Shown piece after piece: positions 1 to 17,828 of a stretch of 59,406 bases of DNA. The notes under the pieces were generated by a model. It saw nothing but the letters and a program-made list of their open reading frames with translations. It did not search any database and was not told the DNA's origin. The stretch spans positions 1 to 59,406 of the forward strand of contig CAZFYA010000004.1 of assembly GCA_964523705.1 (NCBI GenBank), in the 5' to 3' direction. Both the position numbers and the translations under genes were made by a program. The stretch comes from an uncultured Gammaproteobacteria bacterium. Lineage in GTDB: Bacteria; Patescibacteriota; Microgenomatia; Levybacterales; UBA12049. Position 1 is the stretch's first letter; each line of letters begins with the position of its first letter.

Positions 1-3000
1 TCAACTTTAAAATATGACTGAATTTGTCCACTATTTACCCTAAGAGAGTAATATTCGGTTGAAGTATATTTATAGATTATCGGCAATGCTCCTGTTGCTG
101 TTGTTTTAAACCAAGCACCATAACTCCAATCACCGGTTCCAGGGTCAAGTGCATTGTTTTCAGTAACAGTTACATAACTACTACTTCCATTAAAGCTTAG
201 TGCCTTTCCAAATTTTCCATTATTGTTCCATGTTGCTGAAGTAATTGTTCCGTTTAAAATACTTCCTCCATAGCCCGAGTTATATACTGTTGTTCCATGC
301 CCTTTATCAAACTTCCAATAACCAACTTGAGATGCAATAGGGGATCCACCAGTAGGATGTCCCGCATTCATATCTTCAACTATTTGCCCAGGGGTGCGGG
401 CGTAATTATATACTTTTACCTCATCCAAAGAAGACTTTAGATATCTACCACTAGCGTTACCAAATTGTAGGTTTGTAGAATTAGATAAGTTTGCAATGGA
501 GGATGATGTTACAGCGCCATTATATATGCCGTCTACATAAAATTTATATGAAGTACCGGATGTTCTTGTAACAGTAATATGGTGCCAACCAGAAGAAGGA
601 ACGTTAGTGAATGGATAGTTAACATTAAAAACACCTGCTGTATCGTTGGTATCAAGAAAATGCAGGTTGGTAACGGGATTTCCAGTTGCAATACCCCATG
701 TATTAGCAGGTGCGCTAGTTGTAAATCCTTTACTTACAATTCCGTTCCAAGTGGAAGATCCACCTAGCGGAAACTTAATCCATGATTCAATAGTAAAATC
801 TCCAGTACCAAAATTGCCAACATTATTACTTAATGAGACATAATCATCGCTTCCGTTAAAACTTCCTCCTTTTCCATATTTTCCAGTTGTCCAGTGACTA
901 CCTGTTCCATACCATGTACCATTGTTTGAATTTCCACTGGAGTCTGCGACAGTGGATCCTGAGGCATCCTCGAAGGACCAATAACCAACCGGTCCTGGAG
1001 CCCAGTTATATAGAGCAGAAACTTCCGAAGAGGAGAGGCCTCGATTATAAATTCTTACTTCATCAAGTTTCCCATCATAATAATAAGAACTTGGGCCGCT
1101 TCCCATATATACATTAGTATTTAAGGGAACTCTTGTGTTCACGGTTGTTCCAACTCTTTGACTCATTGTTTGTTTTACTCCGTTGATATACATTTCGGAG
1201 GAGGTAATATCTCCATTGTTAATAACAAAAACAACGTGTTTCCATCCTCCTGATAATCCAGTCGGAGCTATCCCCCAAATATCAGATGCGTATGTATTAA
1301 TTCCAAAATGACTAGTGCCTATAAAGAAAAGATCCATACTTGAAGATCCTCCAAAATTCATAACCATTTGATTGCTACCAGTACCATCCCAATTCATCCA
1401 AAATGCAACAGTAAACTTACTTCCGCTTGATGTAGGAAGACTTGAGACAGCAGTAGTTGAACTGTCACTTGATCCATTATGGTCTCTTCCATTAGCAAAT
1501 TTTCCATTCGTTACGCTTGTTCCAGTAACTGTACTTGTATATCCATTTCCAGAGCTATCAATAAGGTTTCCAGAGTCTTCATCCATTTTCCAATAACCAA
1601 CTAAACCATTTGACAAAGCATCAGAGAGCTCATTATCTCCTCCAATTTGAGAAGAAACACCCTTAACAGAACCACGAGATGTATAATCTGCCCTTATCTG
1701 CTCTGCTGTCCTTTCGTAGTTATATACTTTTACATCATCGATATAGCCTTTAAACGGATAGGTATTTGAGCCTCTCATTCTGCCGATTTCCCAATTACTT
1801 GTTCCAATGCTTTTACTAACCGTGTTTTCATATTCTTTTACAGTATTATTGCCGTTGATATAAAGGTTGTAATTACCAGAATTATCTCTTGTAAATGTTA
1901 TTTGATACCAGGTGTTGGGTTGAAAGTCATATTGAGTCCCAAATGTTTCATCTGCAATCCATCCATCTACATATCTTGTACCATTAGCGTCTACGCTAAA
2001 GCGAAGTTCAAAACCAGAATTATAGCCTCCTTTGGAAATAATTCCTTGCCATGTGCTATTTGCTATTGCTTTAGTTGTTTTTGCCCAAACTGAAACTGAA
2101 AAAGCGCTAGTGTCAAATTGTAGATTTGAAGGGTTTCCTGCACTCACATAGTCATCAGTGCCATCAAAAAACAAACACTTAGAAGAAATACATTGATTTT
2201 CAGATTGCCAAGTAGCGCCGGTTATTGTTCCATTGTTTTTACTAGTTGTTGAGTCATGGGCTGTTGTTCCATAACCCTCATCAAATTTCCAGTAAGCAAC
2301 AGGTCCTTTAGAGGTTTCTTCTCCCTGATAGTTTATAAACGTATCATTCATTGATTTGTATTCTGCAGCTATCCAATCAGCAGATCTGGCGACCTTTTCA
2401 ACTCTGAATTCATCCAATTTTCCATTTAGAGGATTAACATAACCATCCCCAATAGTAAAAGTACGATCATTAATTGCAGGATAAGAACTGTCATATGTGT
2501 TCCCTGTGAGATATGCCCCGTTTTTATACCATTTATAACTATAGTCACTTGAGTCTCTAACAGCTGTAATATAAACCCATTGGCCTTGAAGACCAACGCT
2601 TGAGGCATAGTTGCTATATGGAACATCATTTCCTCCGTTGCTTCCCATGTACCAACTAAGAGCACAACTTGTTTCAAGAGTCATTGTTGACCATCCGCCA
2701 AAAGCTTGATCGTATGGATTTTGTCTTGAAGGAGAAGCGCAACTATTTATATACATCCAATAGGAGATAGTAGTATCAGCAGTTAAGATAGATGAACCAA
2801 CTGTTCCAAGGCTAATTCCGGTTCCGGATGAGAAATCTACTGCAGGACCTACTTTTCCAGCTTGGTTAAATTTAATTCCTGTTGTTGGTGTTCCACTGGT
2901 GTTTCCAGTGCTATCATTTACAGAGCCACTGCCTGTTGTCCCAGCGGGGTCTGCTAAATGGTAAACAAGTGAATAGTCTGTGGAGCTCCAGGTAGTTGTT

Positions 3001-3515
3001 TTGCTTTGTGCATCAGTTGCGTAAGGGTTTCCATAGTATATAAAGATAGAGTCAGTTGTTGATGAAGCATCAATTTGCGGTACTTCAACCCAAATATATC
3101 CTTGTCTTGTAAATTGATCGAATTTTTCTATTTCATAATCTAACAAAGTAGTACCATCTGAATCAGTAAAGCGAATATCAGCCCCATTAGTTGCTGCTTT
3201 AGCAAAGTCAAAATTACTGGGAGTAAGCTTAACTAAAACCTTAAAATTAGTTAAGTCTTCATCTTGAGCAGAGTTGTTAAAAACTAGTTGCTTTCTATTT
3301 TTCCAGCTATCATCATACCAAGTTGCCTCTGATTTTGTAGCATTGCTTAAGGTATAAATAACACTTGGAATAAGAACTAAAAGAAAAGCAACAACACCGG
3401 TCATTACATATAGCTTTTGTCTACTTGTTAACTTCCCATACCAGGTAACAGGAAGCAAGTGTTTTAAAAATGTTATTGTTTTTTTAATTATTTTTAATAG
3501 ATTAGGTATTTTCAT
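1..3515 (-). CDS. Large membrane-anchored DUF2341 + multi-LamG (concanavalin A-like jellyroll) surface protein, >1170 aa, 3' end runs off the window
   Basis: Not in the ORF track because no stop lies in the window. Manual translation from ATG at 3515 (2 bp after the stop of the 2863-aa gene) gives MKIPNLLKIIKK...TGVVAFLLVLIPSVIITL (TM), then WYDDSWKNRKQLVFNN...DIRFTDSDG...IWVEVP (DUF2341-like). It then has repeated GPVAYWKFDEG / GLVGYWKMDE / GPVGYWSFED ... G.LDEVRIYN LamG units (4 complete, 1 partial). Frame checked at the start, at ~2.3 kb and at base 1. Confidence 0.88.
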   Translation of the reverse strand, partial: MKIPNLLKIIKKTITFLKHLLPVTWYGKLTSRQKLYVMTGVVAFLLVLIPSVIYTLSNATKSEATWYDDSWKNRKQLVFNNSAQDEDLTNFKVLVKLTPSNFDFAKAATNGADIRFTDSDGTTLLDYEIEKFDQFTRQGYIWVEVPQIDASSTTDSIFIYYGNPYATDAQSKTTTWSSTDYSLVYHLADPAGTTGSGSVNDSTGNTSGTPTTGIKFNQAGKVGPAVDFSSGTGISLGTVGSSILTADTTISYWMYINSCASPSRQNPYDQAFGGWSTMTLETSCALSWYMGSNGGNDVPYSNYASSVGLQGQWVYITAVRDSSDYSYKWYKNGAYLTGNTYDSSYPAINDRTFTIGDGYVNPLNGKLDEFRVEKVARSADWIAAEYKSMNDTFINYQGEETSKGPVAYWKFDEGYGTTAHDSTTSKNNGTITGATWQSENQCISSKCLFFDGTDDYVSAGNPSNLQFDTSAFSVSVWAKTTKAIANSTWQGIISKGGYNSGFELRFSVDANGTRYVDGWIADETFGTQYDFQPNTWYQITFTRDNSGNYNLYINGNNTVKEYENTVSKSIGTSNWEIGRMRGSNTYPFKGYIDDVKVYNYERTAEQIRADYTSRGSVKGVSSQIGGDNELSDALSNGLVGYWKMDEDSGNLIDSSGNGYTSTVTGTSVTNGKFANGRDHNGSSDSSTTAVSSLPTSSGSKFTVAFWMNWDGTGSNQMVMNFGGSSSMDLFFIGTSHFGINTYASDIWGIAPTGLSGGWKHVVFVINNGDITSSEMYINGVKQTMSQRVGTTVNTRVPLNTNVYMGSGPSSYYYDGKLDEVRIYNRGLSSSEVSALYNWAPGPVGYWSFEDASGSTVADSSGNSNNGTWYGTGSHWTTGKYGKGGSFNGSDDYVSLSNNVGNFGTGDFTIESWIKFPLGGSSTWNGIVSKGFTTSAPANTWGIATGNPVTNLHFLDTNDTAGVFNVNYPFTNVPSSGWHHITVTRTSGTSYKFYVDGIYNGAVTSSSIANLSNSTNLQFGNASGRYLKSSLDEVKVYNYARTPGQIVEDMNAGHPTGGSPIASQVGYWKFDKGHGTTVYNSGYGGSILNGTITSATWNNNGKFGKALSFNGSSSYVTVTENNALDPGTGDWSYGAWFKTTATGALPIIYKYTSTEYYSLRVNSGQIQSYFKV

Positions 3516-3517
3516 AA

Positions 3518-6500
3518 TTAATTAATAATTAACCAGTTAAACGGTATTGGTTTAGTTGTAAATTCATCAATTCCAATTGTGAATGAACCTTCAATTCCAT
3601 TTAATTCTTGGTCTTCCGGTACTTGTCTTAGAAGATATGGATTTAGTCCATTAACTGAGCCAATTGGAGTAATATAGATTAGAGAATCTTTAGTAATTAA
3701 GTCATTATTAATAGTAATCTCTTTTTGTCTTGCACTTATTGTTGCAATTCCAGCAGATCCGGTTGCAAGTATTTCGTTATCAGATAAGGCTAGAGCTTCT
3801 TTAACAAAGTTTAAATTAAGCTTTCCAAAAGTACCAGAACCTGAAGCAATAATATCTCCTTTTTGGCTAACTGATAGAACTGCTGAATCGCTGGCATTAA
3901 CAATAGCTAAGTCATTATTGGCAATTGGGCTAATTATTCCTGTTGCTAATTTTCCGCCAACCGTTACGTCTTTTGCAAAAGTAGCATTACCTAAAACCGC
4001 TAGGTTGCCGCTTTCATCAATTTTAACTAAACCTGAAAGGAAAGAAATCCCGCCTTGTCTAAGTGGTTGAATTTCAAGGTCTGCTCCTAAAACATTAATT
4101 GCTCCGTCAGCTAAGATTAGATTTCCACCAACTGCTAGTTGTCCGGCAATTGAGGTGTCAGAAAGACTGGTTGGTCCAAATGACATTAAACCTTGAGTAA
4201 AGGTGGCCAGTTTTGTCTGAAGTTTATCAACATAGATAAACTGTCCTGACATTGAGGAGATATCCATATAGTCTGAAGAAACAGGTATTGTTGCTAATTC
4301 ACCAGCTCCTGTTGATTCGTAATAATTATTAGTTATGTATTGAGCAGAGATAGTGCTACTTGATATATTTAATCCTTCTATATTTTCAGCAATAATATTT
4401 TTAGCTCTTAGCGTTCCAGCAAAACTTGCACTTCGGGCGGTCAGGTCGCCCTCAGTGTAAACATTTCCGCTATCATCTATTCTTGCAACTACCTCTTTTG
4501 TTTCACTATTTCTTACCTCAAGTGATGAATTACCAAGTGCTAACTCAACTGTTGAGTCTGATGCTAGAGGAGAGATAATACCTGTTTTTAACGTATCAAT
4601 GCTGGCAATAGGAGAGGAGATTTCGTCTCCTGATATTAAGTAATTATTATTTAATATATTTTCAATAGATGATGCGATGTATTCTTGAATTGTTTGTCCA
4701 CCAATACTTAAACTTTCGGTTGCAATTTCTGAAGCTGACAATGCTCCAGCCTGAAGATTAGCGGCAATAAGAGTTGAGAATCCTCCGGTTCTTTTAATTG
4801 AATTACCAAGACTATCAATTAATGCATAGATTGGTTCTCCAAATTCACTAAAGGTTTTAGCAATTGAAAACTCACTATATATTGGAGAACCGGACATGGT
4901 TGCATCTTCTAGCTTTTCATTGATTAAATCTTCTGCTCCCGGAACAACAAGGCCAGTGATATTTGGATCAGTCTCATCTGAAATATTTCCCCAAGACATG
5001 TGATCAAACCTTGGAGCAGTTAGTCTAAACGAAAGTGAAGTAGGTGAGTCGGAAAGGAAAGTAATTTTCCTATTATCAACATCTTTTTTGTACCAAACCC
5101 TAGAAGAGGAGTCAGGTGTTAAAAGAATTGAAGTAAGAGCGATATTTGGATCAGTTACTCTTGAGAAGAGCCAGAGATCAGATGCAACCTCTTGGTTATT
5201 TAAATCAATGGTATATGAATACGCCTCATCCAGTGCATTATATGAAAGGGAAGCTTTGCCTGTTACTTCTTCTTTTACTCCAACCATTGAGGTTCCATAG
5301 GTTGAATATTTTCCTCCATCAATTGTGTACAAAGGATCAATAGTAGCTGCTGTTAATTTTCCTGTTCCATTTGGACCAACGTAAACATCTCCGTCTGATG
5401 CAACTCTAAATTGAGTTGTTCCGGAATTTGATGCAACTAAAAGATCCGCGCCTGAAGCACTACTTAATTGGTCAATGATAACAGCTGCATTTCCAAGGCT
5501 GTTTTTACTTACATGAAGCCCTGTTGAAGTTAGTGGAGAAGCTGTACCGATTCCAACAGAACCATAGGTAGTAAGTGATGTTCCGGTTGCAGCAGGATCA
5601 AGGAAATAACTGCTATTATCTATATCATAGAATGACGCACCATATAATACACCGGCATTGGTAAGGTAAAACTTGGTTGTTCCTGAAGTGGAAGCAGTTA
5701 GAATATTTTGATCTGTCCCTGTGTAATTTAGATTAACCAAGGCTTTACCTACGGTTTCTCCTTGAACATCTAATCTGCTGTTCGGATCGGTTGTCCCAAT
5801 TCCTACATTGCCGTTATAGTTAATACGCATTCGCTCAGTTGGGGCAGTATCTGTAACCACGTTTCTTGTTCCAAAGATTAAATCCCCATAAGTATTACCA
5901 CTAATTGTTGATATTTCTTGATAACCTATATATCCTGGAAAGTGAGTTGTGCTACCGTCTTTATATCCCATTCCCATTAAGCGATAAGAATTTGCTCCCC
6001 ATTCTTGGCCACCAAGTCCTAAATAGTATGCAGCTGCATTTATTGATGTTGGGGCAGTTTCAGAATCAGTAGATGCTAGTCCAATTTGTAAGTGTGCATC
6101 TGGATCAGATATACCAATGCCCACATCTCCTCTAAATGAGGAAACATTTGTACTTGGATAAAATCTTACTGCATGGTCATCCCAAGCTTCTCCAATGTAT
6201 AAATATGACATTGCATCACCTGAGCCAAATCCTCCATAATTAGCCCAAACAGTGTCTGCAGCATTATTAATAAAGCCATAACCATAAGCCCAGCCTCCAG
6301 ATGACTTATTTGGTCTAATAGCGATACCATTTGCGAAATAGCTATCGAGAATAACCGTAGATGTGTTTGGCCCTGCACCCCGAACTTCTAGTCTTCCAGC
6401 TGCGTCAACAACACCTATGCCAACATAACCATCATTAATGGTCATGCTCACAGCATCATTAGTACCAAATTGTAGATAATCATCTGATATAGTTCCAATT

Positions 6501-9500
6501 AATAAGGCATCGCTTTTGGCATCTGAATAAGCGTTATTCTCTGGGTCATAGTCATTAGTACCAGAAAATCCAATAATTCCACTTGTTCCACCATTATCCT
6601 GAGTTAATTTTAAGAAAGGATTATCAGATTCAGTAGCGTTGTCTATATCTGCTTCAAGATAAATAGCAGCATCAGCAGTATTTTGAATATGTAGATTATA
6701 GCCTGGGCTTATCGTCCCTATCCCTACATTTCCACCCCAGCCATTATCAGGCATAACTATTAAATTTCCGGATACAGAGGCTGTTGCTTGTCCGGAGTTT
6801 AAGTTAAGTACTGCAAACTTGGCAGAAGAGGTTGCTTGTCCACCAATAAGAAGATCTACGGTAGAGTTGTTAGGGTAGAGTGCACCATCTGATTGAGTCC
6901 AATAGCCTGTACTTCCTAAGCTTACCCCTTCAATGTTATTAACATACAATGTGTCCCAATATGCCCCTTCAGAACCTAAATCATAGGTACTATCAGTACT
7001 TGGATTAAAGGTTCCCCCCATGGTAGCTATTAGTCCTGTAGGGGATAAAGAGAGGTATCCAAGTTGATCTGTTTTGATATCAGAATATACAGAGCCGTCA
7101 GTTGATGTTAATCTTAACTGTGTTCCTCCTGCACCTGATAATACATCTAATTTTGCATCAGGGCCTGTTGTGCCGATACCGACATTACCATCTTTTGTAA
7201 ACTCTATAACAGGTATGTTATATTCATTGTTTCTAATAATTCTTAGATCTGCATTGTTTGTTGCATCGTAGCTAATATAATTAGTGCTGTTTCTTGCAAA
7301 GGCTAAGCTATTTGGAGATATAGTAAAATAATTAGTTGGATCTCCTCCATCTGCTAATCTTATTGTGCCTACAACATGAAGTGGGGTATATGGATTGGTT
7401 GTCCCAATTCCTACATTACCATTGTTTAAGATTGTCATTTTTGCTGATAATCCAGAATCTCCCCCAACCGAGGTTTGAAAATCAAGCCTATTCCCATTTA
7501 AAACATCAATAGTAGATGGGGAAGATCCTCTAAAAACCAAAGATCCAGAAGTTGATGCATCCCCGGCAATATCAAGTTTAGCAGTTGGACTCGTTGTTCC
7601 AATTCCAACATTTCCACCCTGGATAGCCATATTTGCTACCCACGAGGAGCTTGTATCTGCAGAAAACTCTAAGCGAGTATTTGTTCTGTCATATCTAAGT
7701 CCGCCACCAGAATATGTATTAACAGTTGTTGCTTGTAGCATTAATGTTGCTGTTGAATTTGCATCAGTTGAAAAATTTCTTAATCTAAATAAAGCATCTT
7801 GTCCAGCTAACGTCTTTTGGGCAACAAATACTCCATCTGGACTCGTTGTTCCAATTCCTACATAACCCGTATTGTCTGCAATAGTTAGGGCATTCGTCCA
7901 TGTATTTGGTCCAGATTTATATTGAAGATTTAAGGCTCCTGTTGGAGCTTTAATTGTATTTACAGCCATGGTTCCTGAAACAGAGGCATTTCCGATGACA
8001 TCTAATTCTTCCAATGGAGAGGTAGTGCCAATGCCTACATCGCCATTATTTGTTATTGTTAATTTGGGAGAGGTGAATCCATCACTATACGCAAAGTAAA
8101 GATTATTTGTAGAATCTTGATCTTGACCAATAGTCCAAGTTGTACTCCCGCCCCTAGCAAATTTAAGGTATTGGCTGCCGGTTGACCAGTTAGCTCCACC
8201 ATTTAGTAACAGTCCGACATCTGTGGCTGAAAGTTCCAATTTTTCATTTGGATTTATAGTTCCAATTCCCACATTTCCACCCCAGCCATTAGTTGGCATG
8301 ACAATAAGGTTTCCAGAAACAGAAGCTGTTGCTTGTCCTGAATTAAGATTAAGTACTGCAAATTTAGCGCTTACTGTTGATTGACCACCAACCAATAAAT
8401 CAACAGTAGGGTTGTTAGGATATAAAGTGCCATCTAATTCTGATTGAGTCCAATAGCCTGTACTTCCTAAACTTACACCTTCAATGTTGTTTACATATAA
8501 TGTATCCCATTTTCTATCAGTTGAACCAAGATTATATGTACTATCAACAGAAGGATTAAAGGTCCCTCCCATGGTTGCAATTAGTCCTGTTGGAGCAAAG
8601 GAGAGGTATCCAAGTTGATCTACTTTGATATCGGAATATACAGAACCGTCAGTAGAGGTTAGTCTTAATTGGGTTCCACCTGCTGCTGATAGAACATCCA
8701 GTCTTGCATCAGGTCCTGTTGTTCCAATTCCAACATTTCCTGAATTGTTAATAATAAACTTAGTAGCTCCTGAAGCAGAAGCAGAGAAAATATCCCCTGT
8801 TCCTGTTTGATTAAATGTTACTAATCCATTTGAGCCAGTATTGCCTGAAACGGATAGTTTTGAAATTGGAGTTAAGTCTCCAACTCCTAAGTTACCGTTA
8901 GAATTAAGTATCATTTTAGTTGAATTATTAACTCCGAAATAAAGATTTTTAGAAGCAGCTGTATTTAAGTAAGTTGTTCCGTCGTCTTTTTGCAGCAATG
9001 CAAAGCCATTTCTATTAGCATAAGTAGCCATAGTAGTGTTGCTAAAATAAGCATAGTAGTTATTTGAGCCGTGTCCTTCGCTAAAAGCTCCACCATCACC
9101 AATTGCCGCATAACCAATTCTTGCGCCTTTATTTATCGTAGATGGATAAACATCTAAGGCTTGAGTAGGACTTATCGTCCCTATCCCCACATTCCCACCC
9201 CAGCCGTTAGTTGGCATGACAATAAGGTTTCCGGAAACAGAAGCTGTAACTTGGTTATTAGCAATACCAGTTACAGAGAATAGGGCAGAGGATGTTGCGC
9301 TTGAACCCAAAAGAAGATCATCGGTTATATTTCTTGGTGATAATGCACCCAGTACTCTTTGCCATTCATTACTGGCAACAGTTGTACCAACAAGGTTATT
9401 TACATAAATTGTATCCCAGTATGCATCAGTTGATCCAAGATTGTATGTAGAGTCAACACTTGGATTAAAGGTTCCTCCCATGGTGGCAATAAGTCCTGTT

Positions 9501-12109
9501 GGGGTAAAAGATAGGTAACCCAATTGATCTGTTTTGATGTTAGAATATACAGAACCGTCAGTAGAGGTTAGTCGAAGCTGGGTTCCTCCGGCTCCTGCTA
9601 ATACATCCAATTTTGCATCAGGCCCTGTTGTGCCGCCAATTCCAACATTTCCATTGGTTCCTTCGATAAAGATAGCATCGGTATATGTATTGGAGCCCAT
9701 CTTTATATCCCTATTTGCAAAAGTTTGAATATATGCTTTGCCACCACTATTTCCTATTCTTAGAATTTCATCTCCTCCGTCACTTCCTCCTCCGACCTGA
9801 AAAGTATATCCATTATCAATTATTATTCCACCTTCTATTTCTAATTTTGCTTCAGGATTAGTATTTCCAATCCCTAAATTACCAGTTCCTAGGTTAAACC
9901 AGGCATTTTCGTTATTGGTTCCCGGTACATGAAAGTAGGCAGAGGAGGATGAAGTACTGCCTATATTTAGCGCATCTGTTAAATTAACAGGAGACATTGC
10001 CCCAAGGTTTCTCTGCCAATATTGAGTTAGAGCAACTCCGCCTGAAATAATGTTGTTTACATAGAGGTTATTCCAGTAGTTATCAGTTGAACCAATGTTA
10101 TATGTATCAGGCGTTAAGGAGAGTAGATTTCCCGAAGATACTGTTCCATCGTTATCTACGGTGAATTTAGCAGTTCCCGAGGTTGAGGCGCTAATTAATG
10201 GACCAGTGCTTGTTTGATTGATAGTAAGGGCTGATTGGCCACTTGAGGATGCTAAAATAGCCAGTAAATCATCAATTTCTACTGCTCCTATGGCAGTTGA
10301 AATATTGTTGTTGTTTGTTGTATTTTGTAATGGTTTCTGAAGATCAATTACTCCAGTACCATCAGGGCTAATTTCTACATTGCTGTTCGTGCCTGCAACC
10401 GTGGTTAAAGCTAAAACATTTCCCGAAATAGTAAATTCTCCTCCTGTAGCTTGGAAAACAGGCGTTGCAGAACCACCAATGGTTAGATTACCTGAAGAAT
10501 CCAGAGCTAAAACAACGTTTTCTTGAGTAGCACTTGGATCGGTTATTGGTAAAAGTCCTTGAAGTGTTTCGGCATTTGCTGCATAGGCAACAGTTGCTAT
10601 TCTTTGCCTTGGCTCAAGTTCAGGTGTGGTTTCAACCGTAACTCCAAGCCAAAGTGAAGCATTTTCCGTGAAAAGCGTTGCTGGAATAGCTGTGTTTTGG
10701 CCAAGATATATATTAAATATACCGTCAGTGTCAGGATCAACAGAATCTATCTCTTGCCATAAAAGAGCAGCTCCTGATGCTACCTCATCATCATATATCC
10801 CAAAACGAAGCGCAGTTAAGCTTTCAATTGGATTATCATTATCATCAGTTAATCTTCCCTGAAAGGAAAGAATACGAGGAGGTGCAGTTGGTAAAGCAGC
10901 AAGTACAGGTTGTTTTAATTTAGGTTCAATAAAAAAGGCATTATATATTCCAAAACCAAGTCCTGCCATAAAGATAACCAGAATTGCTAAGTTGAAATAA
11001 TGGACAATTGAGTATGAATGATACTTTTTGTACCATTCTGGTCGTGTGTATTTGGCATGATGAATAACTTTTCTATGCCAAGGATATGAGGCTATCGAGA
11101 CTGAAAGTGGAGCGTAAAGTTCCTTGCGGATATTATCGATTGATTTAGGATTTATGATTGATGATTTATGATCTTGAATCTTGAATCTTGAATCTTGAAT
11201 CTTGGTGAAAATTGGTTTTCCTTTTCTTTTCCAATTAAGGTAAGTTATCTTTTCACCAAATGAAGCCAGGTGGGAAGTAATTGCTAAGTCAAATGCAATT
11301 CCACTTAATTTTCCAATTTTTTGAAATAGCCTAAGAGGAGGAAATGATGAGTATTTGGTATTTGGTATTTGGTATTTGGTATTTGGCGTTTCTTTTATAG
11401 CTATTGGCCTTGAAGTTTTAAGTTTTTCCAAGTTTGAAACTTGTTCTTTTTTTATGTCTCTGACTAATCCTTCTGAAGCTGCCCATGCGGTATATCTTCT
11501 TAAAGAAGACAGTTTTCTATTGATTGTTAGAGGAGAAAAGCTTTGTGAAATTAGCCTTTTTTTATACTCCTCAATAAGGCTGTTGTCTAATTTTTGAAAA
11601 AGGTCTTTTTCAGATACGTCCCAAGTTTCTTTTATGCCTGTTACTTCCTCGGCCCAGTTTAAAAATTGTTTAACATCAATGACGTAATTTTTAATCGTTA
11701 AGTGAGAGGCATTATATACGTAAAGATAATCTTTAAAATCTTTTATTCTGAAAGGATCGTTTTCTTTTTGGTTTTTAGCTTCAGTTTTATCAAAAGGAGA
11801 GCGTGAAACATAGCCTTCTAGCTTTAAAAAATTAAAAAACTTTCTTAGAGAAGAGAAGTGCCTCTCAATAGAACGAACTGATACACTTTTACCTTCGTTT
11901 TTAGGATTAAGCCTATCTAGTTTGTATTCGTTGAGAATAAAAGAAGAGATGTTATCAGCTGAAAATTCTTCATGGTATTTAGCTTCGTACCAGCGGATAA
12001 ATTGGCTAACATCAGCTTTGTAGTTTTTAACCGTTAGCTTTGACGGTTTATCCTTTTGACTTTCTAAGAATTTGAGAAAAAGACCTATAAATCGTTGGGC
12101 AGTGTTCAT
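3518..12109 (-). CDS. Giant 2863-aa protein: two tandem tyrosine-recombinase N-terminal core-binding (SAM-like) domains, linker, single TM helix, then extracellular fibre/adhesin-like repeat region
   Basis: aa ~5-105 (FLKFLESQ..SKLTVKNYKADVSQF..SVRSIERHFSSLRKFFNFLKLEG) and aa ~118-215 (FKDYLYVYNASHLTIKNYVIDVKQF..SPLTINRKLSSLRRY..EG) match the XerC/XerD N-domain pattern. No R..K..HxxR..Y catalytic domain follows. TM is FNLAILVIFMAGLGFGIYNAFF. Sixteen G[NDYS][VL]G[IV]G.T.P..KL.V repeats follow, typical of tail-fibre-like CPR giant proteins. Confidence 0.85.
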   Translation of the reverse strand: MNTAQRFIGLFLKFLESQKDKPSKLTVKNYKADVSQFIRWYEAKYHEEFSADNISSFILNEYKLDRLNPKNEGKSVSVRSIERHFSSLRKFFNFLKLEGYVSRSPFDKTEAKNQKENDPFRIKDFKDYLYVYNASHLTIKNYVIDVKQFLNWAEEVTGIKETWDVSEKDLFQKLDNSLIEEYKKRLISQSFSPLTINRKLSSLRRYTAWAASEGLVRDIKKEQVSNLEKLKTSRPIAIKETPNTKYQIPNTKYSSFPPLRLFQKIGKLSGIAFDLAITSHLASFGEKITYLNWKRKGKPIFTKIQDSRFKIQDHKSSIINPKSIDNIRKELYAPLSVSIASYPWHRKVIHHAKYTRPEWYKKYHSYSIVHYFNLAILVIFMAGLGFGIYNAFFIEPKLKQPVLAALPTAPPRILSFQGRLTDDNDNPIESLTALRFGIYDDEVASGAALLWQEIDSVDPDTDGIFNIYLGQNTAIPATLFTENASLWLGVTVETTPELEPRQRIATVAYAANAETLQGLLPITDPSATQENVVLALDSSGNLTIGGSATPVFQATGGEFTISGNVLALTTVAGTNSNVEISPDGTGVIDLQKPLQNTTNNNNISTAIGAVEIDDLLAILASSSGQSALTINQTSTGPLISASTSGTAKFTVDNDGTVSSGNLLSLTPDTYNIGSTDNYWNNLYVNNIISGGVALTQYWQRNLGAMSPVNLTDALNIGSTSSSSAYFHVPGTNNENAWFNLGTGNLGIGNTNPEAKLEIEGGIIIDNGYTFQVGGGSDGGDEILRIGNSGGKAYIQTFANRDIKMGSNTYTDAIFIEGTNGNVGIGGTTGPDAKLDVLAGAGGTQLRLTSTDGSVYSNIKTDQLGYLSFTPTGLIATMGGTFNPSVDSTYNLGSTDAYWDTIYVNNLVGTTVASNEWQRVLGALSPRNITDDLLLGSSATSSALFSVTGIANNQVTASVSGNLIVMPTNGWGGNVGIGTISPTQALDVYPSTINKGARIGYAAIGDGGAFSEGHGSNNYYAYFSNTTMATYANRNGFALLQKDDGTTYLNTAASKNLYFGVNNSTKMILNSNGNLGVGDLTPISKLSVSGNTGSNGLVTFNQTGTGDIFSASASGATKFIINNSGNVGIGTTGPDARLDVLSAAGGTQLRLTSTDGSVYSDIKVDQLGYLSFAPTGLIATMGGTFNPSVDSTYNLGSTDRKWDTLYVNNIEGVSLGSTGYWTQSELDGTLYPNNPTVDLLVGGQSTVSAKFAVLNLNSGQATASVSGNLIVMPTNGWGGNVGIGTINPNEKLELSATDVGLLLNGGANWSTGSQYLKFARGGSTTWTIGQDQDSTNNLYFAYSDGFTSPKLTITNNGDVGIGTTSPLEELDVIGNASVSGTMAVNTIKAPTGALNLQYKSGPNTWTNALTIADNTGYVGIGTTSPDGVFVAQKTLAGQDALFRLRNFSTDANSTATLMLQATTVNTYSGGGLRYDRTNTRLEFSADTSSSWVANMAIQGGNVGIGTTSPTAKLDIAGDASTSGSLVFRGSSPSTIDVLNGNRLDFQTSVGGDSGLSAKMTILNNGNVGIGTTNPYTPLHVVGTIRLADGGDPTNYFTISPNSLAFARNSTNYISYDATNNADLRIIRNNEYNIPVIEFTKDGNVGIGTTGPDAKLDVLSGAGGTQLRLTSTDGSVYSDIKTDQLGYLSLSPTGLIATMGGTFNPSTDSTYDLGSEGAYWDTLYVNNIEGVSLGSTGYWTQSDGALYPNNSTVDLLIGGQATSSAKFAVLNLNSGQATASVSGNLIVMPDNGWGGNVGIGTISPGYNLHIQNTADAAIYLEADIDNATESDNPFLKLTQDNGGTSGIIGFSGTNDYDPENNAYSDAKSDALLIGTISDDYLQFGTNDAVSMTINDGYVGIGVVDAAGRLEVRGAGPNTSTVILDSYFANGIAIRPNKSSGGWAYGYGFINNAADTVWANYGGFGSGDAMSYLYIGEAWDDHAVRFYPSTNVSSFRGDVGIGISDPDAHLQIGLASTDSETAPTSINAAAYYLGLGGQEWGANSYRLMGMGYKDGSTTHFPGYIGYQEISTISGNTYGDLIFGTRNVVTDTAPTERMRINYNGNVGIGTTDPNSRLDVQGETVGKALVNLNYTGTDQNILTASTSGTTKFYLTNAGVLYGASFYDIDNSSYFLDPAATGTSLTTYGSVGIGTASPLTSTGLHVSKNSLGNAAVIIDQLSSASGADLLVASNSGTTQFRVASDGDVYVGPNGTGKLTAATIDPLYTIDGGKYSTYGTSMVGVKEEVTGKASLSYNALDEAYSYTIDLNNQEVASDLWLFSRVTDPNIALTSILLTPDSSSRVWYKKDVDNRKITFLSDSPTSLSFRLTAPRFDHMSWGNISDETDPNITGLVVPGAEDLINEKLEDATMSGSPIYSEFSIAKTFSEFGEPIYALIDSLGNSIKRTGGFSTLIAANLQAGALSASEIATESLSIGGQTIQEYIASSIENILNNNYLISGDEISSPIASIDTLKTGIISPLASDSTVELALGNSSLEVRNSETKEVVARIDDSGNVYTEGDLTARSASFAGTLRAKNIIAENIEGLNISSSTISAQYITNNYYESTGAGELATIPVSSDYMDISSMSGQFIYVDKLQTKLATFTQGLMSFGPTSLSDTSIAGQLAVGGNLILADGAINVLGADLEIQPLRQGGISFLSGLVKIDESGNLAVLGNATFAKDVTVGGKLATGIISPIANNDLAIVNASDSAVLSVSQKGDIIASGSGTFGKLNLNFVKEALALSDNEILATGSAGIATISARQKEITINNDLITKDSLIYITPIGSVNGLNPYLLRQVPEDQELNGIEGSFTIGIDEFTTKPIPFNWLIIN
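6712..9652 (-). repeat. Three ~480-bp (~160-aa) near-duplicate cassettes inside the giant gene (approx. 9172-9652, 8260-8740, 6712-7189)
   Basis: GTTGPDAKLDVL..AGGTQLRLTSTDGSVYS.IK.DQLGYLS..PTGLIATMGGTFNPS.DSTY.LGS...WDT.YVNN...ASVSGNLIVMP.NGWGGNVGIGT occurs three times with visibly high nucleotide similarity, separated by unrelated segments. Confidence 0.9.
11143..11204. repeat. Heptamer tandem repeat (ATCTTGA x~5 preceded by 4 degenerate ATTTATG-type units), in-frame in the giant gene linker
   Basis: atttagg atttatg attgatg atttatg atcttga atcttga atcttga atcttga atcttg; encodes KIQDSRFKIQDHKSSIINPKS. Confidence 0.9.
11351..11385. repeat. Heptamer tandem repeat (GTATTTG x5), in-frame in the giant gene linker
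   Basis: Five perfect units; encodes PNTKYQIPNTKY. Confidence 0.92.
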
Positions 12110-12143
12110 TCCCGAACCTCGCTTTTTAAAAACATGTAATTAG

Positions 12144-12171
12144 GTTCAACATTATACGGATTATACGTTTT
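12144..12171 (-). other. dif-like 11-6-11 site (putative Xer-family binding site) upstream of the giant gene
   Basis: Minus strand reads AAAACGTATAA-TCCGTA-TAATGTTGAAC versus E. coli dif GGTGCGCATAA-TGTATA-TTATGTTAAAT: 6/11 in the XerC arm, 8/11 in the XerD arm, 6-bp spacer. Confidence 0.45.
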
Positions 12172-12225
12172 ATCCAGCCAGTTGGCGGACAAGTAAGAAT
12201 TAGTTTTATATATATACATACTATT

Positions 12226-12255
12226 AGAATAAGGAGTTTTTTTATGAAAAGTCAA
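12226..12255 (-). promoter_or_regulatory. Sigma70-type promoter for the giant-gene operon
   Basis: TTGACT-N18-TATTCT on the minus strand, ~115 bp upstream of the ATG at 12109. Confidence 0.5.
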
Positions 12256-12719
12256 GAACCTAGAGTAATATACCGTTGATATATTTTTATGCATTCCGAT
12301 ATAGACAGGGAAGCGTATTTAGAATACAAAAAAAAGCAGAAAATTTGTCTTTTCACAGCTTCAAAATGCCCATTTTCGACTATTATTATACTTTTATAAA
12401 AATCGGTAAATCAAACAAACAGTATCAAAGAGTATCACTAGTCCTATAACTCGTTTTCACGAAAAAATTATCCTTTAGTTTTTTAGCCTCAAAAAAATTT
12501 GTTAAATTTGGCAAAATCTAACGTTTAGAAAATTTCTTATTAGCAATTATTTGTCCTTAGTGATAGGTTTTTTAGGGTGTTGTTTTTTATTGATTTTATA
12601 GGCATATAAAGAATTGCGGTTATGTCTTAAGGCTTAAAAACTTATAAACTTAAAATCCTTAATGCCGGTTGCTTTAATGGTTAAAATTTGCTTAAAATTA
12701 GTTTATTGACTAATTCTTT

Positions 12720-13604
12720 ATGAAAAAACATCTGCCCAAAATTGTTGTTTTCTTGTTAGTTTTCTTAGCTTACGTATTTTTTTCTACCTTTAATGTTTCT
12801 GCCCAAATGAGTTTACCCAAGGCAAAACATGAAACCAGTGTTTCTGCTAAGGTAGGCCAGTTCTACTTAAATCTTTCCGGTTGGATATCTCCTTATGCTT
12901 CAGTTGTTTTAACTTCAGATGGAGTGTTTCTAAGATCAACTACAGCTGATTCAAAAGGCAATTTTTACATTACAGGAGTATTAATTAAAGCAGGGTTTTC
13001 ATCCTTTTGCTTAGAGGCAATAGATTTTAAGCGCCTTGGTGATTCATATACTTGTTTTAAGGTCAAGCCGGCTACATCGGATATTACTATGAAGGATATT
13101 TTTCTTCCCCCAACCCTTGGTTTATCCAGAAACGAAATAGGAGAGAATGAGGAGGCAATTGCCTTTGGTTATACAATGCCGGGAGCAAAGGTAAAACTGT
13201 ATTTAAGTAATGGTCAGGTTATTGAAACTACGGCTGATTCTGACGGGTATTATGAGTTTAAATTAAAAAATCTTAAAGCAGGAAAGTATGAGCTTTACGC
13301 AAAAGCAGAATATCAAAACAAAGAGTCTTTAAAACCAACTAAGACCCTAAAGCTTACTTCATTATCGTGGTGGGAGATGTTTCTTGCTTTTCTAAGAGAT
13401 ATTTGGGATAGAATAGTTAAATTTATCACTTCAATAGGCCTAGGGCCGCTTTGGATTGCCTTACCAATAATTTTAGTAATTGTTGCACTTGTTCTAAAGC
13501 TTTGGCCTGAAAAGTTTACCTTTATTTACAACAGTAAGCTTTTAGCATGGTTGCCTCGTAAAAAAAAGAAAAAGCTTCACCATAGCTGGTTTATGGGGTA
13601 TTAG
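12720..13604 (+). CDS. Membrane-anchored protein with Ig-like/carboxypeptidase-regulatory-like beta-sandwich domains
   Basis: N-terminal signal/TM; STTADSKGNFYI and TTADSDGYYEF..NLKAGKYELYA repeats; C-terminal TM and lysine-rich tail. Confidence 0.65.
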   Translation: MKKHLPKIVVFLLVFLAYVFFSTFNVSAQMSLPKAKHETSVSAKVGQFYLNLSGWISPYASVVLTSDGVFLRSTTADSKGNFYITGVLIKAGFSSFCLEAIDFKRLGDSYTCFKVKPATSDITMKDIFLPPTLGLSRNEIGENEEAIAFGYTMPGAKVKLYLSNGQVIETTADSDGYYEFKLKNLKAGKYELYAKAEYQNKESLKPTKTLKLTSLSWWEMFLAFLRDIWDRIVKFITSIGLGPLWIALPIILVIVALVLKLWPEKFTFIYNSKLLAWLPRKKKKKLHHSWFMGY

Positions 13605-13605
13605 T

Positions 13606-14580
13606 TTATTCTTGGGGGTTTTCTTTATTTAATTTTTCCTCTTTTACTCTTAGGCTTTTTTTCCTTAAATACATTATTCCCAAAATTATAGCAACTACGA
13701 TGAGTATAACAACCAACATTATTTTCCAGGGTAACACCCAGAAGGTTAAGGTCGCAACTAAGGGTAGATTATTATCTTTTCCATAGGTTGCAGTTAGTTT
13801 TGCTGTAAATGGACCAAAAAGTACTTTTTTATCAAGTGTGTTTTCAAAGTTTCTTACCGCTTCCGGAAAGATATTGTGTTCAGGAAGGGTAAGAGAAGCT
13901 ATTTTTCTTCCTAAAATATCAGTAATTGTAATTTGTCCGATTGGCTTTACGTGTAAATCTCCAAGGTTTTTAATTTGAGTTTCAATTTTAACCGGACCAT
14001 ACTCTTGAAACCTATTAGCACTAAACTTGGTTACACTTGCGCTTTCTTTTATATCTCCTTTAACATCAACGTAAAAAAGAGTGCCAACTTGAGTATTTAC
14101 AGCTGTTCCTGTTCCCTCAACTTTAATTAATTCATCCGGTTTATATATTACAGCAGCGTAATGTCCGCCCGGTTTTGCATCCATAGGTACTTGTAAATAG
14201 TAATTTAGTTCATATTTTTCATGAGGACCAACAGTAAATTTACCCGGATAGGCTGCCAGCCAGGAAGCTGCAGAGTATTTATTTGATAGCGTATTAGGAG
14301 GTAAAATGGTTGGAACTCCTTCATTGTCTTCAACAATAAAGTCCTGGGTTGTGGCTGTAAAGGTTAAAGTTTCATTTGAATCGTTAATTATTTTAATTAA
14401 TCCTTCAGCTACTTCTCCCGGATTTAAACTTTGTTCAACTGTTGGTGGGACCAGGGTAAAGGTTCTGGTTGGCTGCTGTGCGTTTATTGAATAAGTAAAT
14501 AAGCTAATAAATAAACAAGCTAATAAGTAAACAAAGATAATTTGAAATTTACGTATTATTTTTTGGACAGTTTTTTTCAT
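13606..14580 (-). CDS. DUF916/WxL-interacting-protein-like membrane-anchored Ig-fold protein
   Basis: Signal; LVPPTVEQSLNPGE..IKIINDSNE; PGGHYAAVIY; IKNLGDLHVKPIGQITITD.LG; C-terminal TM plus basic tail; sits directly downstream of a WxL-like gene. Confidence 0.6.
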   Translation of the reverse strand: MKKTVQKIIRKFQIIFVYLLACLFISLFTYSINAQQPTRTFTLVPPTVEQSLNPGEVAEGLIKIINDSNETLTFTATTQDFIVEDNEGVPTILPPNTLSNKYSAASWLAAYPGKFTVGPHEKYELNYYLQVPMDAKPGGHYAAVIYKPDELIKVEGTGTAVNTQVGTLFYVDVKGDIKESASVTKFSANRFQEYGPVKIETQIKNLGDLHVKPIGQITITDILGRKIASLTLPEHNIFPEAVRNFENTLDKKVLFGPFTAKLTATYGKDNNLPLVATLTFWVLPWKIMLVVILIVVAIILGIMYLRKKSLRVKEEKLNKENPQE

Positions 14581-14585
14581 AAGTT

Positions 14586-16019
14586 TTAAAAGGTTGGTGT
14601 TGCAACGTAAGTGACTTCTGATGTGTAAAGACCTGCAGGAACCGTTACATCTACTCCTGCTGCATACTCAACGCTTATTAGGCCATTTCCTGCTTCTATA
14701 ACGTTTCCAACCGGCCCTGTAGCATCATAGGCTAAGGTTACAGCAGTTGTAGCTGTTGGCCAGCCGTATTTACACTCATTAGCAGTTGAACCGGTAATTA
14801 CAGTACTACAGTTTTCATCATCTGTTTCAGTCCAGGTAGTTGTGCCGTATGAGTCAAGTGAGCAGGGGTGAATTCCAAACCAGGGAGTGCTGTTGGGAAA
14901 TGCTGCAGGAGTGGTACTACTGGCAATAGCAAAACCTGATGCGTCGTTTCTTAACTGACCGCTTGAAGTGGCGGTTAAAGCATAGCCGTTTGGTGCATTA
15001 GTAGAAATGGTAATTAATTGGGCTGCAATATTGCCGACTTTAGTATCGGCTCCGCCCGGAGTATTGCCTAGAATTCCCAAATCTACCAAGGTTGCAGTTG
15101 AGGCAATTCCGGCATTAGTAGTTTCCGAGTTGGTACAACCGGTAGTATTACCGGTGTTAATTGCTGTTGCATTGGCAATTCCGGTAATTGTAAAGGTAAG
15201 AGTTGGATCAACTGTTGCTCTGACTGTTACTGATTCAATTGTGCCTACCTTAGCGCTTGATTCTTCTCTTACTACGTCTGATGAGTCAGTTGTTTTAATG
15301 TCTATTCTCCAGGTGTCAGCTGCACCGGCTGTAGTATTGCTTTTAGTGGGGTTAATCAGGGTTGGAACTTGAGTTGTACAACTTGAGCCGGAACTTGCAG
15401 AGCAGCCAATTAAAAAGGTAATAGTTGTTCCTAAAGCTACTCCGGCATTAGTGGTGCAGGTAATTGAAGGGGAGGAGACGTTCCATGAGTCACAAGTTAT
15501 TCCATCAGTTTTAATATTAGTGCTGGTTAAGTTATTAAAGGCAAAAGTTGAAGCAGAAGGAGAAGCAGTATTATTTGCGCTTCCCGGAAAAGTAATTACT
15601 ACTTTACCACTGGCAGGAATTGCAACTTCGGTTTTAAACTGAACAGTGTGCATTGCAGTAATTGGAACCATAAAAATATCACCTGCACCAAAAGCATTAG
15701 TTGTGCCACTGGTTAAATATACGTTTCTGGTTCCCCAAAGGCCGGTTGTAGCAGAGGCAGTTGAAACAGTAGTATTTTCCAAAACAGTTCCAACCGACTG
15801 CACAAGTCTTGCCGAATCAGAAGCAAGAAAAACAGCTGAAGCATTATCAACAACAACAGCTGATGTAGCCCCGGCACTTACAGCAGAACTTAAATTGGTT
15901 GAGGTTGAGGGTCTTGAAGTTGAGAGAGTATCAGAAACTAAAGTTAAAGCATTGGCTTTTGGAGTATTTAAAAAAAACAGCAGTAATAATGCCGGCAGTA
16001 TAACCCGTAAATTTTTCAT
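14586..16019 (-). CDS. Secreted Thr/Ser-rich WxL-like surface subunit (large, 477 aa)
   Basis: Signal peptide; C-terminal GLYTSEVTYVATPTF parallels the WxL end motif YxxxLTWxLxxxP; several Cys pairs. Confidence 0.55.
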   Translation of the reverse strand: MKNLRVILPALLLLFFLNTPKANALTLVSDTLSTSRPSTSTNLSSAVSAGATSAVVVDNASAVFLASDSARLVQSVGTVLENTTVSTASATTGLWGTRNVYLTSGTTNAFGAGDIFMVPITAMHTVQFKTEVAIPASGKVVITFPGSANNTASPSASTFAFNNLTSTNIKTDGITCDSWNVSSPSITCTTNAGVALGTTITFLIGCSASSGSSCTTQVPTLINPTKSNTTAGAADTWRIDIKTTDSSDVVREESSAKVGTIESVTVRATVDPTLTFTITGIANATAINTGNTTGCTNSETTNAGIASTATLVDLGILGNTPGGADTKVGNIAAQLITISTNAPNGYALTATSSGQLRNDASGFAIASSTTPAAFPNSTPWFGIHPCSLDSYGTTTWTETDDENCSTVITGSTANECKYGWPTATTAVTLAYDATGPVGNVIEAGNGLISVEYAAGVDVTVPAGLYTSEVTYVATPTF

Positions 16020-16044
16020 TTAAATAAAATAAATCCTTAAAATT

Positions 16045-16073
16045 AGTATGGAAAACGATTAGTTAATTGTCAA
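16045..16073 (-). promoter_or_regulatory. Internal promoter ahead of the large WxL-like subunit
   Basis: TTGACA-N17-CATACT on the minus strand in the 62-bp gap upstream of ATG 16019. Confidence 0.5.
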
Positions 16074-16081
16074 GGGGTAAA

Positions 16082-17089: not shown

Positions 17090-17090
17090 A

Positions 17091-17828
17091 TTAAAATGTC
17101 GGTGTTGCAATATACGTAATTACATTTGTATAAACACCTGCTTCTTGTGTCCCTGAAATATTAACCTTATATGTTATTTGAGCTTGTTTAGTTCTTCCGA
17201 CATTAGTTCCGCTCATAACAACCTTAGCCGATGGTGAGGCATCAAAAGGACGATAATAATTGGAGCTTGAAAAATCAGTTGGGCAATCAGTTCCTGATAG
17301 ATTATCACAGCGATAACCAAAGCCATAAGTTAAGCTATTTGACCATTCAGTAGCGTTTGAGGGGGTACATAAGCCATCATCGCAAGCTGTATCAGGAATA
17401 GTTTTTCCAATACCAGGGGATAGAAGAGCATGGTTTTCAGATGCTGTTACCTGGTAACCGCTGGCAGAACCGTTAGAAATAGTTAAGGTATTGGTTCTTT
17501 CAACAGGATTAGTTGCAATTAATGAACCAAAATCAATATTGGTATCAGAAATTGTAAAAGTAAATGGAATGATTGAATAAATATATTGAAAGCCGGCCCT
17601 GACTTTGTAATTTACGCCGGTTTTGCTGTATAGGCCAAAGGCTGTTTGACCAACGGTATCGGTTAGTTTGTATCCTGAGCCGCTTTTTGCTCCTGCGGCC
17701 ATATTTAAGTTTCCCATCCAGATTATATAATCTTCATTAGACATTGTTTGAGCATAAGCGTTACCTATTAAAACTGTAAAGATAAAACTAAGAATAAATA
17801 GGGGAATAAAGATTTTTATTTTCTTCAT
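17091..17828 (-). CDS. Secreted WxL-like surface subunit (small, 245 aa)
   Basis: Signal peptide; FTFTISDTNIDFG; C-terminal GVYTNVITYIATPTF, the same terminal motif as 14586-16019. Confidence 0.55.
   Translation of the reverse strand: MKKIKIFIPLFILSFIFTVLIGNAYAQTMSNEDYIIWMGNLNMAAGAKSGSGYKLTDTVGQTAFGLYSKTGVNYKVRAGFQYIYSIIPFTFTISDTNIDFGSLIATNPVERTNTLTISNGSASGYQVTASENHALLSPGIGKTIPDTACDDGLCTPSNATEWSNSLTYGFGYRCDNLSGTDCPTDFSSSNYYRPFDASPSAKVVMSGTNVGRTKQAQITYKVNISGTQEAGVYTNVITYIATPTF

Follow-up and report, generated by a model that had tools for sequence, protein, structure and literature searches.

The window analysed here, a stretch of 59,406 nucleotides on contig CAZFYA010000004.1 (assembly GCA_964523705.1) from an uncultured bacterium of the Levybacterales, carries an open reading frame (ORF) on the minus strand at 3518-12109, whose product of 2863 aa joins in one chain two core-binding (CB) domains of the Xer and phage integrase type, a linker, a single transmembrane (TM) helix and a giant ectodomain resembling phage tail fibres, and whose leader holds a promoter followed by an array of 9-bp direct repeats (Table 1). 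As for the head of the protein, Pfam matches PF02899 (Phage_int_SAM_1) twice with 68.7 bits against a cut-off of 22.3, the best stretch being aa 122-214, and covers aa 7-108 by PF13102; the NCBIfam models of XerC and XerD give two matches each, only at model positions 2-101, namely the N-terminal domain. The two CB domains share 31% identity and have derived motifs in common. A Pfam scan of the whole protein at E <= 1 returns nothing beyond the Phage_int_SAM domains and no match to the catalytic domain of Phage_integrase (PF00589), no Pfam or NCBIfam match goes past Xer model position ~101, and the R-K-H-R-H/W set with its tyrosine nucleophile is not found. In an AlphaFold2 model built on a 17-sequence alignment, the head forms two four-helix bundles with a predicted local distance difference test (pLDDT) of 80-93, whose mutual arrangement is not fixed (predicted template modelling score, pTM, 0.38), followed by disorder at 221-250 and 297-321, a helix at 257-296, short helices at 344-363 and the TM helix at 367-397. 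Thus aa 215-366 consist of disorder and isolated helices, and an alpha/beta catalytic fold is not seen in the model. Against the PDB, Foldseek ranks highest the CB domains of lambda Int, Tn1549 Int, Brujita Int, XerA and IntI; a profile search of the PDB with the head reaches N-terminal domains only. A catalytic remnant in aa 215-366 was therefore rejected, as none is found by Pfam, NCBIfam, AlphaFold or the PDB profile search. Because the catalytic domain is absent when tested for, the protein is not a tyrosine recombinase, and the family is mislabelled by the database names of the homologues, 'site-specific integrase' at NCBI and 'XerD' at JGI. Among solved structures, the best sequence match to the head profile is PDB chain 9i5v_14 (401 aa, E = 4e-8), deposited as 'ribosome-associated translation inhibitor RaiA', the first ~100 residues of which align as a Xer-type CB domain; here either the label or the fusion is odd.

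Kyte-Doolittle hydropathy gives one TM segment, at 368-386, which is kept in homologues, and there is no signal peptide at the N-terminus. The 366 N-terminal residues carry a net charge of +27 before the TM helix and the ectodomain of 2470 aa has an isoelectric point of 4.2, and therefore the N-terminus is predicted inside and the C-terminus outside, with the CB head in the cytoplasm and the fibre on the surface. Between the second CB domain and the membrane there are three family-invariant motifs, YSxFPPxRLxQK, FYAPLxIS and the membrane-adjacent RPxWYxxYH. In the ectodomain, PHROG tail-fibre families are matched at aa 1541-1664 and 2084-2261 (phrog_18345, E = 1e-19; phrog_9942, E = 4e-15), and the shaft contains three copies of a cassette of 265 nt plus 120 nt with 68-80% identity, at window positions 6704-9634. 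The middle of the fibre is variable, whereas most family members keep the C-terminal ~600 aa at their own extreme C-terminus, the last 300 aa matching the extreme C-terminus in 176 of 227 relatives. Unlike many of its own homologues, which bear PF13884 or PF11962 (the S74 or G2 intramolecular chaperone), this fibre has no detectable S74 domain, and Pfam matches neither S74 nor G2 in the protein.

The architecture is widely distributed. A word-indexed search with aa 1-420 retrieved 134 giant homologues of 1580-4991 aa with 32-80% identity, which cover 94-100% (mostly 98%) of the query, and an exhaustive profile search over 1.84 billion representatives (threshold E <= 1e-30, clusters at 50% identity) gave 276 protein clusters, in every one of which the head is matched at residues 1 to ~440. 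Relatives of the head are encoded in at least 277 genomes of reference species, of which the informatively titled records are mostly Levybacteria. It could be argued that the fusion is an artefact, either a pseudogene or a piece of an integrase joined to a fibre gene by misassembly or chimerism, all the more so as the contigs and unitigs of all four sequencing runs break at heptamer-repeat inserts (11141-11204 and 11351-11386) lying between CB domain 2 and the TM helix. However, they break only there; the four runs, drawn from at least two studies, yield contigs that cover the gene without a single difference and cross the TM join. Of 143 loci, taken from different studies, 142 have CB domain 2 and the juxtamembrane motif in one reading frame; conservation of the juxtamembrane region is strong, and the same fusion is present in 276 clusters. 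A chimeric assembly was rejected on these grounds, and we give the artefact hardly any credence. As for the inserts themselves, ATCTTGA (x4.9) and GTATTTG (x5.1) are perfect and TGATTTA (x4.6) is imperfect (84% matches), and they encode KIQDSRFKIQD and NTKYQIPNTKY. Read depth climbs there from ~6 to 20-35, and therefore the same repeats recur at many other places of these metagenomes. Only 10 of 143 family loci have four or more heptamer units in the linker and no frameshifted copies were seen; phase variation through these heptamers is not supported, as 142 of 143 loci are in frame and the contigs are without length variants.

An initial annotation of this DNA, made from the sequence alone, had proposed two consecutive XerC/XerD-like N-terminal domains, one TM helix, a cytoplasmic head and an adhesive part outside, and most of this agrees with our results: the domains are recovered alike by Pfam, NCBIfam, AlphaFold2 and Foldseek, the helix both as a single conserved hydropathy segment and in AlphaFold2, and the predicted sidedness and tail-fibre-like nature fit the charge, the isoelectric point and the PHROG matches. 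Its expectation that pipelines would mislabel the protein as an integrase proved right as well. Its linker of ~170 aa without catalytic motifs stands in so far as no catalytic domain is there, but the region is not a mere linker, for it holds the three invariant motifs given above. The same annotation had suggested profile, topology and structure analyses, a search for homologues of the same architecture and a check for a chimeric join; the first of these found no catalytic fold in aa 220-370, the second gave the clusters and genomes just described, and the third revealed no join artefact, with zero differences over the TM join.

The leader of the gene merits equal attention. In 72 of 72 reference loci with upstream sequence we find a non-coding element of the form TACTCTAGG-N3-TTGACA-N17/18-TAnTCT-AATWGTATG, and then, ~20-30 nt past the start-region element, two to four tandem 9-bp words (G/A)TATAATCN followed by CTCGAGGCTAA. 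TTGAC lies upstream in 135 of 137 leaders (consensus ttacT.Tagg.tcTTGACA), the array consensus is ATAAtc.GTATAATC.GTATAATcTcGagGCTaaa, and the 126 unique leaders have three word units in 96 cases, two in 26 and four in 4. Within the word, the G preceding the hexamer is family-wide as conserved as the hexamer itself and the C following it nearly so; in locus L201 two of the three words read GTATAAC. The exact 16-mer of the array occurs once per locus, on the strand of the gene, and that promoter and array are a general feature of the genome was rejected, as array, upstream box and start region are each unique in the window. The distance from the array to the -35 hexamer is fixed (42-68 nt, with peaks at 53-54 and 61-62) whereas that to the ATG is free (from 10 to more than 150 nt), and the sequence and length between array and start codon are not conserved. 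The leader RNA of the window has no significant fold compared with shuffled sequences (z = -1.19), and Rfam finds only tRNAs in the window; on these results and the unconserved region after the array a structured RNA leader or riboswitch was rejected, no covariation test having been run. From the fixed and the free distance and the unfolded leader together it follows that the element most likely works at the level of transcription, on DNA, at or just after initiation. Besides, TTTTCAC(A/G) boxes recur between start site and array and again between array and ATG (L004, L006, L007, L010, L020, L022 and others); such boxes may be a second conserved word.

The array is linked to the head rather closely. 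When the 25-nt DNA pattern alone was scanned across public metagenomes in a reverse test, 115 loci were obtained, 103 of them with enough downstream sequence, and in 101 of these 103 a CB-head gene lies directly downstream of the array; the two exceptions are L183, a chimeric-looking contig, and L154, a DUF2341-type surface protein. Moreover, nature has exchanged the head. When the extracellular base domain (aa 396-520) was used as query, two relatives came up, P0235 and P0244, which share the RPxWY juxtamembrane motif, the TM helix and the PPRILSFQGRLTD base with this protein (47-49% identity) and have as cytoplasmic head a MerR helix-turn-helix (HTH) domain (PF00376, 47 bits). At both loci the GTATAAT array is absent from either strand across 10-13 kb, and a repeated leader word AAATCT(A/G) is present, as it is in two further giants with MerR heads. 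CB-head relatives of the Woesebacteria type, which with 42-52% identity in the base stand at a comparable distance, retain three 9-bp units right after the -10 hexamer. The leader word thus covaries with the type of head.

We therefore consider, with a probability of about 0.5, that the protein is a membrane-tethered, autoregulating transcription factor with a tandem CB reading head. According to this explanation the tandem CB head would be a sequence-specific DNA-binding module that reads the GTATAATC words of its own leader at their 9-bp period, and, sitting on the array a short way past the promoter, it would repress transcription of its own gene or act as a roadblock to it, thereby limiting the fibre gene and probably the co-directional DUF2341/LamG gene behind it. 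In topology it would belong with ToxR and CadC among the one-component regulators, its reading head being FliZ-like, and the occupancy of the array would be set by the number of heads that are free, clustered or lost, in other words by the state of the fibre. DNA binding by the head is what we infer, and the basic cytoplasmic part was counted in its favour; the derived motifs common to both CB domains would fit identical words in direct repeat. Repression would be favoured over activation because, counted from the predicted start, the array spans about +5 to +45, and a link of the regulation to host contact may likewise be presumed. The initial annotation had listed autoregulation of the ToxR/CadC type among possible roles, and this suggestion gains support at the level of sequence from the conserved array in the gene's own leader and from its change with the type of head. 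Its view of the protein as a candidate device coupling DNA to the surface is favoured as well.

The closest precedent for such a reading head is FliZ of E. coli and Salmonella, a global repressor that acts by binding -10-like words, one of them a non-promoter word shortly after the flhDC start (PMC3367168). The R108A substitution abolishes its DNA binding, and the helix concerned was equated by the authors with DNA-binding helix 2 of the phage integrases and, in Cre, with one of the pair of helices that touch DNA (PMC3367168). In fact FliZ is a PF02899-only protein without catalytic domain, and in our alignment its T-V-R108-E109-Y coincides with T-V/I-K-N-Y, which is invariant in both CB domains, with K28 and K140 at the position of R108. 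By analogy our protein may work like FliZ: the two are alike in the integrase-type core-binding fold, the lack of a catalytic domain, the basic residue at the R108 position, and the -10-like words just downstream of a promoter, which FliZ binds and which are a candidate site here. FliZ differs in being soluble, of ~183 aa, with a single CB-like region, global and proteobacterial, whereas in the present protein of 2863 aa the CB domain is duplicated at the N-terminus and tethered to the membrane and a fibre of ~2470 aa.

The word itself contains the consensus -10 hexamer, and it may be thought that the reader of the GTATAAT array is the RNA polymerase holoenzyme, for which the array would be a promoter-proximal pause site dependent on sigma-70 or else a set of tandem alternative -10 elements tuning a very long gene, with the CB head unrelated. 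Such a view accords with the perfect TATAAT in each word, with the position of the array shortly after the predicted start, with the weakness of the upstream -10 hexamer TATTCT, and with L154, in which an array precedes a giant surface gene lacking a CB head. However, it does not account for the tie of the array to CB-head genes in the motif scan or for its loss from MerR-head relatives on the same scaffold; the flanking G is as conserved as the hexamer and the flanking C nearly so, and a strict 9-bp period with 2-4 units is typical of protein-binding iterons and not needed for pausing. The GTATAAC words lack the final T needed by a sigma-70 -10 element, which together with the conserved flanking G argues for a reader other than sigma. 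The natural head swap, the GTATAAC words and the FliZ precedent all point to the CB head as reader of the array over RNA polymerase, and we regard a reading by the polymerase as unlikely, if far from negligible.

Another view is that the tandem CB domains no longer bind DNA and serve in the cytoplasm for contacts between proteins, for example when the fibre or its partners are exported, assembled or anchored, the array belonging to another regulator. The unfixed arrangement of the two domains in AlphaFold agrees with it, as do the highly conserved juxtamembrane module after the head, which may dock partners, and the conserved synteny with a surface cassette of the WxL/DUF916 kind (see below). 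Nevertheless, the helices in which the invariant residues are found are those two by which Cre, Xer and FliZ contact DNA, the head is basic, the relatives have at the same position a MerR HTH domain, so that DNA binding is the common trait of both head types, and no candidate regulator gene is seen adjoining the fibre gene in the window; this view seems to us decidedly improbable. Even less probable is a variant of the proposal of the initial annotation, in which the CB pair mimics XerC plus XerD on a dif-like site and would tether the terminus or another locus to the attachment pole or block Xer recombination. The domains are indeed of Xer type, and the inner part of the word, CGTATAA, presumably resembles the spacer-proximal part of the core arms of Xer and Cre sites (E. 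coli dif, loxP). However, the conserved candidate site is an array of two to four direct repeats with a 9-bp period and not a pair of inverted arms around a spacer of 6-8 bp, and dif-like inverted arms were rejected for this reason; besides, the array always stands in the leader of its own gene at a fixed distance from the promoter, and the 59-kb window contains no Xer gene and no other CB-containing ORF.

Returning to the membrane-tethered autoregulator, several points weigh against it. Its word is one for which RNA polymerase is a candidate reader, and three words do not obviously match the two CB domains of one chain. In L154 (the array and ~1.3 kb downstream), the same promoter and GTATAAT array stand directly before a TM-anchored DUF2341-type surface protein without CB head. 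The head-swap comparison consists of four MerR-head loci, only two of them with the shared scaffold, and lineage effects are possible. The likeness to FliZ goes no further than membership of the same Pfam family, specific homology not being found (hhalign probability 3.5%). RNA-seq runs were sought for mapping the start site, and the locus was found in DNA runs only. Finally, a membrane-tethered repressor would need its own gene at the membrane, which by analogy is a prediction here; membrane-tethered regulation with the gene brought to the membrane is known for ToxR and CadC.

With regard to other known systems, the protein shares with ToxR, TcpP and CadC an N-terminal cytoplasmic DNA-binding domain (predicted here), one TM helix and an extracytoplasmic part in one polypeptide, and, if our explanation is right, a regulation that proceeds from the membrane; those regulators have winged-helix/HTH DNA-binding domains and small periplasmic sensors, whereas here their places would be taken by two recombinase CB domains in tandem and by a 'sensor' that is giant, tail-fibre-like and probably trimeric. 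A survey of transmembrane transcription regulators counts as such any protein that has both a predicted TM region and a predicted domain for DNA binding, and its main text mentions neither integrase-type domains nor Patescibacteria (PMC10269533). By this formal definition the present protein belongs to them, and its DNA-binding domain is moreover predicted on the cytoplasmic side. With XerC, XerD, XerA and phage integrases it shares the N-terminal four-helix CB/SAM-like domain by sequence and fold, but not the catalytic domain with its RKHRH-Y residues, and unlike them it has two CB domains per chain, a membrane anchor and a candidate site of direct repeats. Its ectodomain is tail-fibre-like according to PHROG, as in Bdellovibrio MAT proteins and phage tail fibres (PMC10769870), and in the conserved surface-proximal domain after the membrane anchor, the model of the MAT N-terminal domain (NF053851) gives a weak match at aa 408-475 (21 bits, below the cut-off of 60). 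However, MAT proteins as described have no cytoplasmic DNA-binding head (PMC10769870), and their fibres vary at the tips, the reverse of what is seen here, where variation lies in the middle and the C-terminal 600 aa are kept. Full-text literature searches found no description of the CB-TM-fibre architecture; a membrane-bound one-component regulator made from recombinase CB domains and a giant fibre, as proposed here, is a design for which we met no printed account.

In sister lineages, of the Woesebacteria type and others, the tandem CB head comes in two pieces, CB domain 2 being interrupted in the loop that joins its helices 2 and 3. There, a separate small ORF of 147-172 aa encodes CB domain 1 and the first half of CB domain 2, and the giant gene begins with the second half, the spacing ranging from an overlap of 14 nt to a gap of 920 nt. 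Such a split could be a reassembling split domain, a programmed frameshift or an intervening sequence. Furthermore, small ORFs of the 23S_rRNA_IVP/bAvd type, which form a four-helix bundle, lie beside or inside fibre relatives (L197 2019-2381, L207 9834-10235, and L162, where the ORF sits between the CB ORF and the giant ORF). Proteins of this type accompany diversity-generating retroelements and intervening sequences, and therefore hypervariation of the fibre is possible.

An extension of the autoregulator would have the giant host-contact fibres of Microgenomates-type Candidate Phyla Radiation (CPR) bacteria hard-wired to their own genes. The CB pair, being the first part of the product of an 8.6-kb gene to leave the ribosome, would bind the array of the very gene copy under transcription; insertion of the signal anchor would then pin the locus to the membrane and shut off re-initiation, and loss of the fibre, tension or engagement of the host would alter the availability of heads and re-open the promoter. 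In the split-head lineages, domain complementation could be the means by which the membrane fibre takes up or sets free a diffusible DNA-binding factor, which, if true, would be a signalling principle previously undescribed. Taken as a whole, this extension is speculative and we hold it to be unlikely.

CPR bacteria, or Patescibacteria, are ultra-small, mostly uncultured and presumed to live attached to host cells. To our knowledge, how they sense contact and control large surface structures is not understood, and few classical regulators are encoded in their genomes. If our explanation is true, the family provides a one-protein link from a very long surface fibre to gene expression, and the DNA-reading half of a tyrosine recombinase proves reusable as the head of a membrane-tethered transcription factor. 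The candidate operator is ~35 bp long and conserved across hundreds of species, and the head fragment is of 220 aa. Furthermore, hundreds of entries named 'site-specific integrase' or 'XerD' are not recombinases, so that counts of mobile elements in CPR genomes are inflated.

Table 1. Features of the fibre gene and its leader (window coordinates), and small ORFs of split-head relatives (coordinates within the named loci)
Feature	Position	Strand	Details
Conserved upstream box CTCTAGG-N3 and -35 hexamer TTGACT	12250..12265	-	Promoter scan; box occurs once in the window
-10 hexamer TATTCT and conserved AATAGTATG, likely transcription start region	12217..12231	-	Promoter scan; unique in the window, kept across loci
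Array of 9-bp direct repeats GATAAAAC-GTATAATCC-GTATAATGT, then TGAACCTAA; candidate operator	12140..12174	-	Single match in the window
CB/SAM-like domain 1	11786..12091	-	aa 7-108; invariant K28-N29-Y30, D33, R83, S86-S87-L88
CB/SAM-like domain 2	11468..11746	-	aa 122-214; invariant K140-N141-Y142, D145, N197-R198-K199-L200-S201, R204
Basic linker	11135..11467	-	aa 215-325; disorder, YSxFPPxRLxQK, semi-hydrophobic helix 257-296, two perfect heptamer-repeat inserts
Conserved juxtamembrane module	11012..11134	-	aa 326-366; N..K.FYAPL.IS...P.hKK..hh.R.TRP.WYk.YHSY
Single TM helix, predicted signal anchor, N-in	10931..11011	-	aa 367-393; hydropathy, AlphaFold2, charge
Conserved extracellular base domain	10604..10924	-	aa 396-502, APPRILSFQGRLTD...; weakly like MAT fibre N-terminal domain
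Variable tail-fibre-like shaft	5330..10603	-	aa 503-2260; GNVGIGTTxPxxKLDV-type repeats
C-terminal module	3518..5329	-	aa 2261-2863 and stop; conserved across the family
Split-head small ORFs upstream of the giant gene	L199 1993-2511, L201 2002-2496, L205 919-1395, L206 1071-1514, L207 120-581		

The surroundings of the fibre gene are rich in surface proteins. A giant DUF2341/LamG gene (3-3515, minus strand) begins 2 nt downstream of the fibre stop codon; it is probably co-transcribed with the fibre gene, and the leader array may control both. Directly upstream of the fibre gene is a divergent gene for an Ig-like protein of 294 aa, and because of this neighbour the fibre gene is considered to have its own promoter. 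Beyond it, at 12720-17828, four genes on the strand of the fibre form a WxL/DUF916-like surface cassette, with products of 245, 342 (WxLIP_PGBD-like), 477 and 324 aa, so that the Ig-like gene lies between this cassette and the fibre gene. Homologues of the 245-, 342- and 324-aa genes are present, mostly in the same arrangement, in 53-66 of 80 reference loci, while the 477-aa gene recurs in 21 and the 294-aa gene in 32 of these 80.

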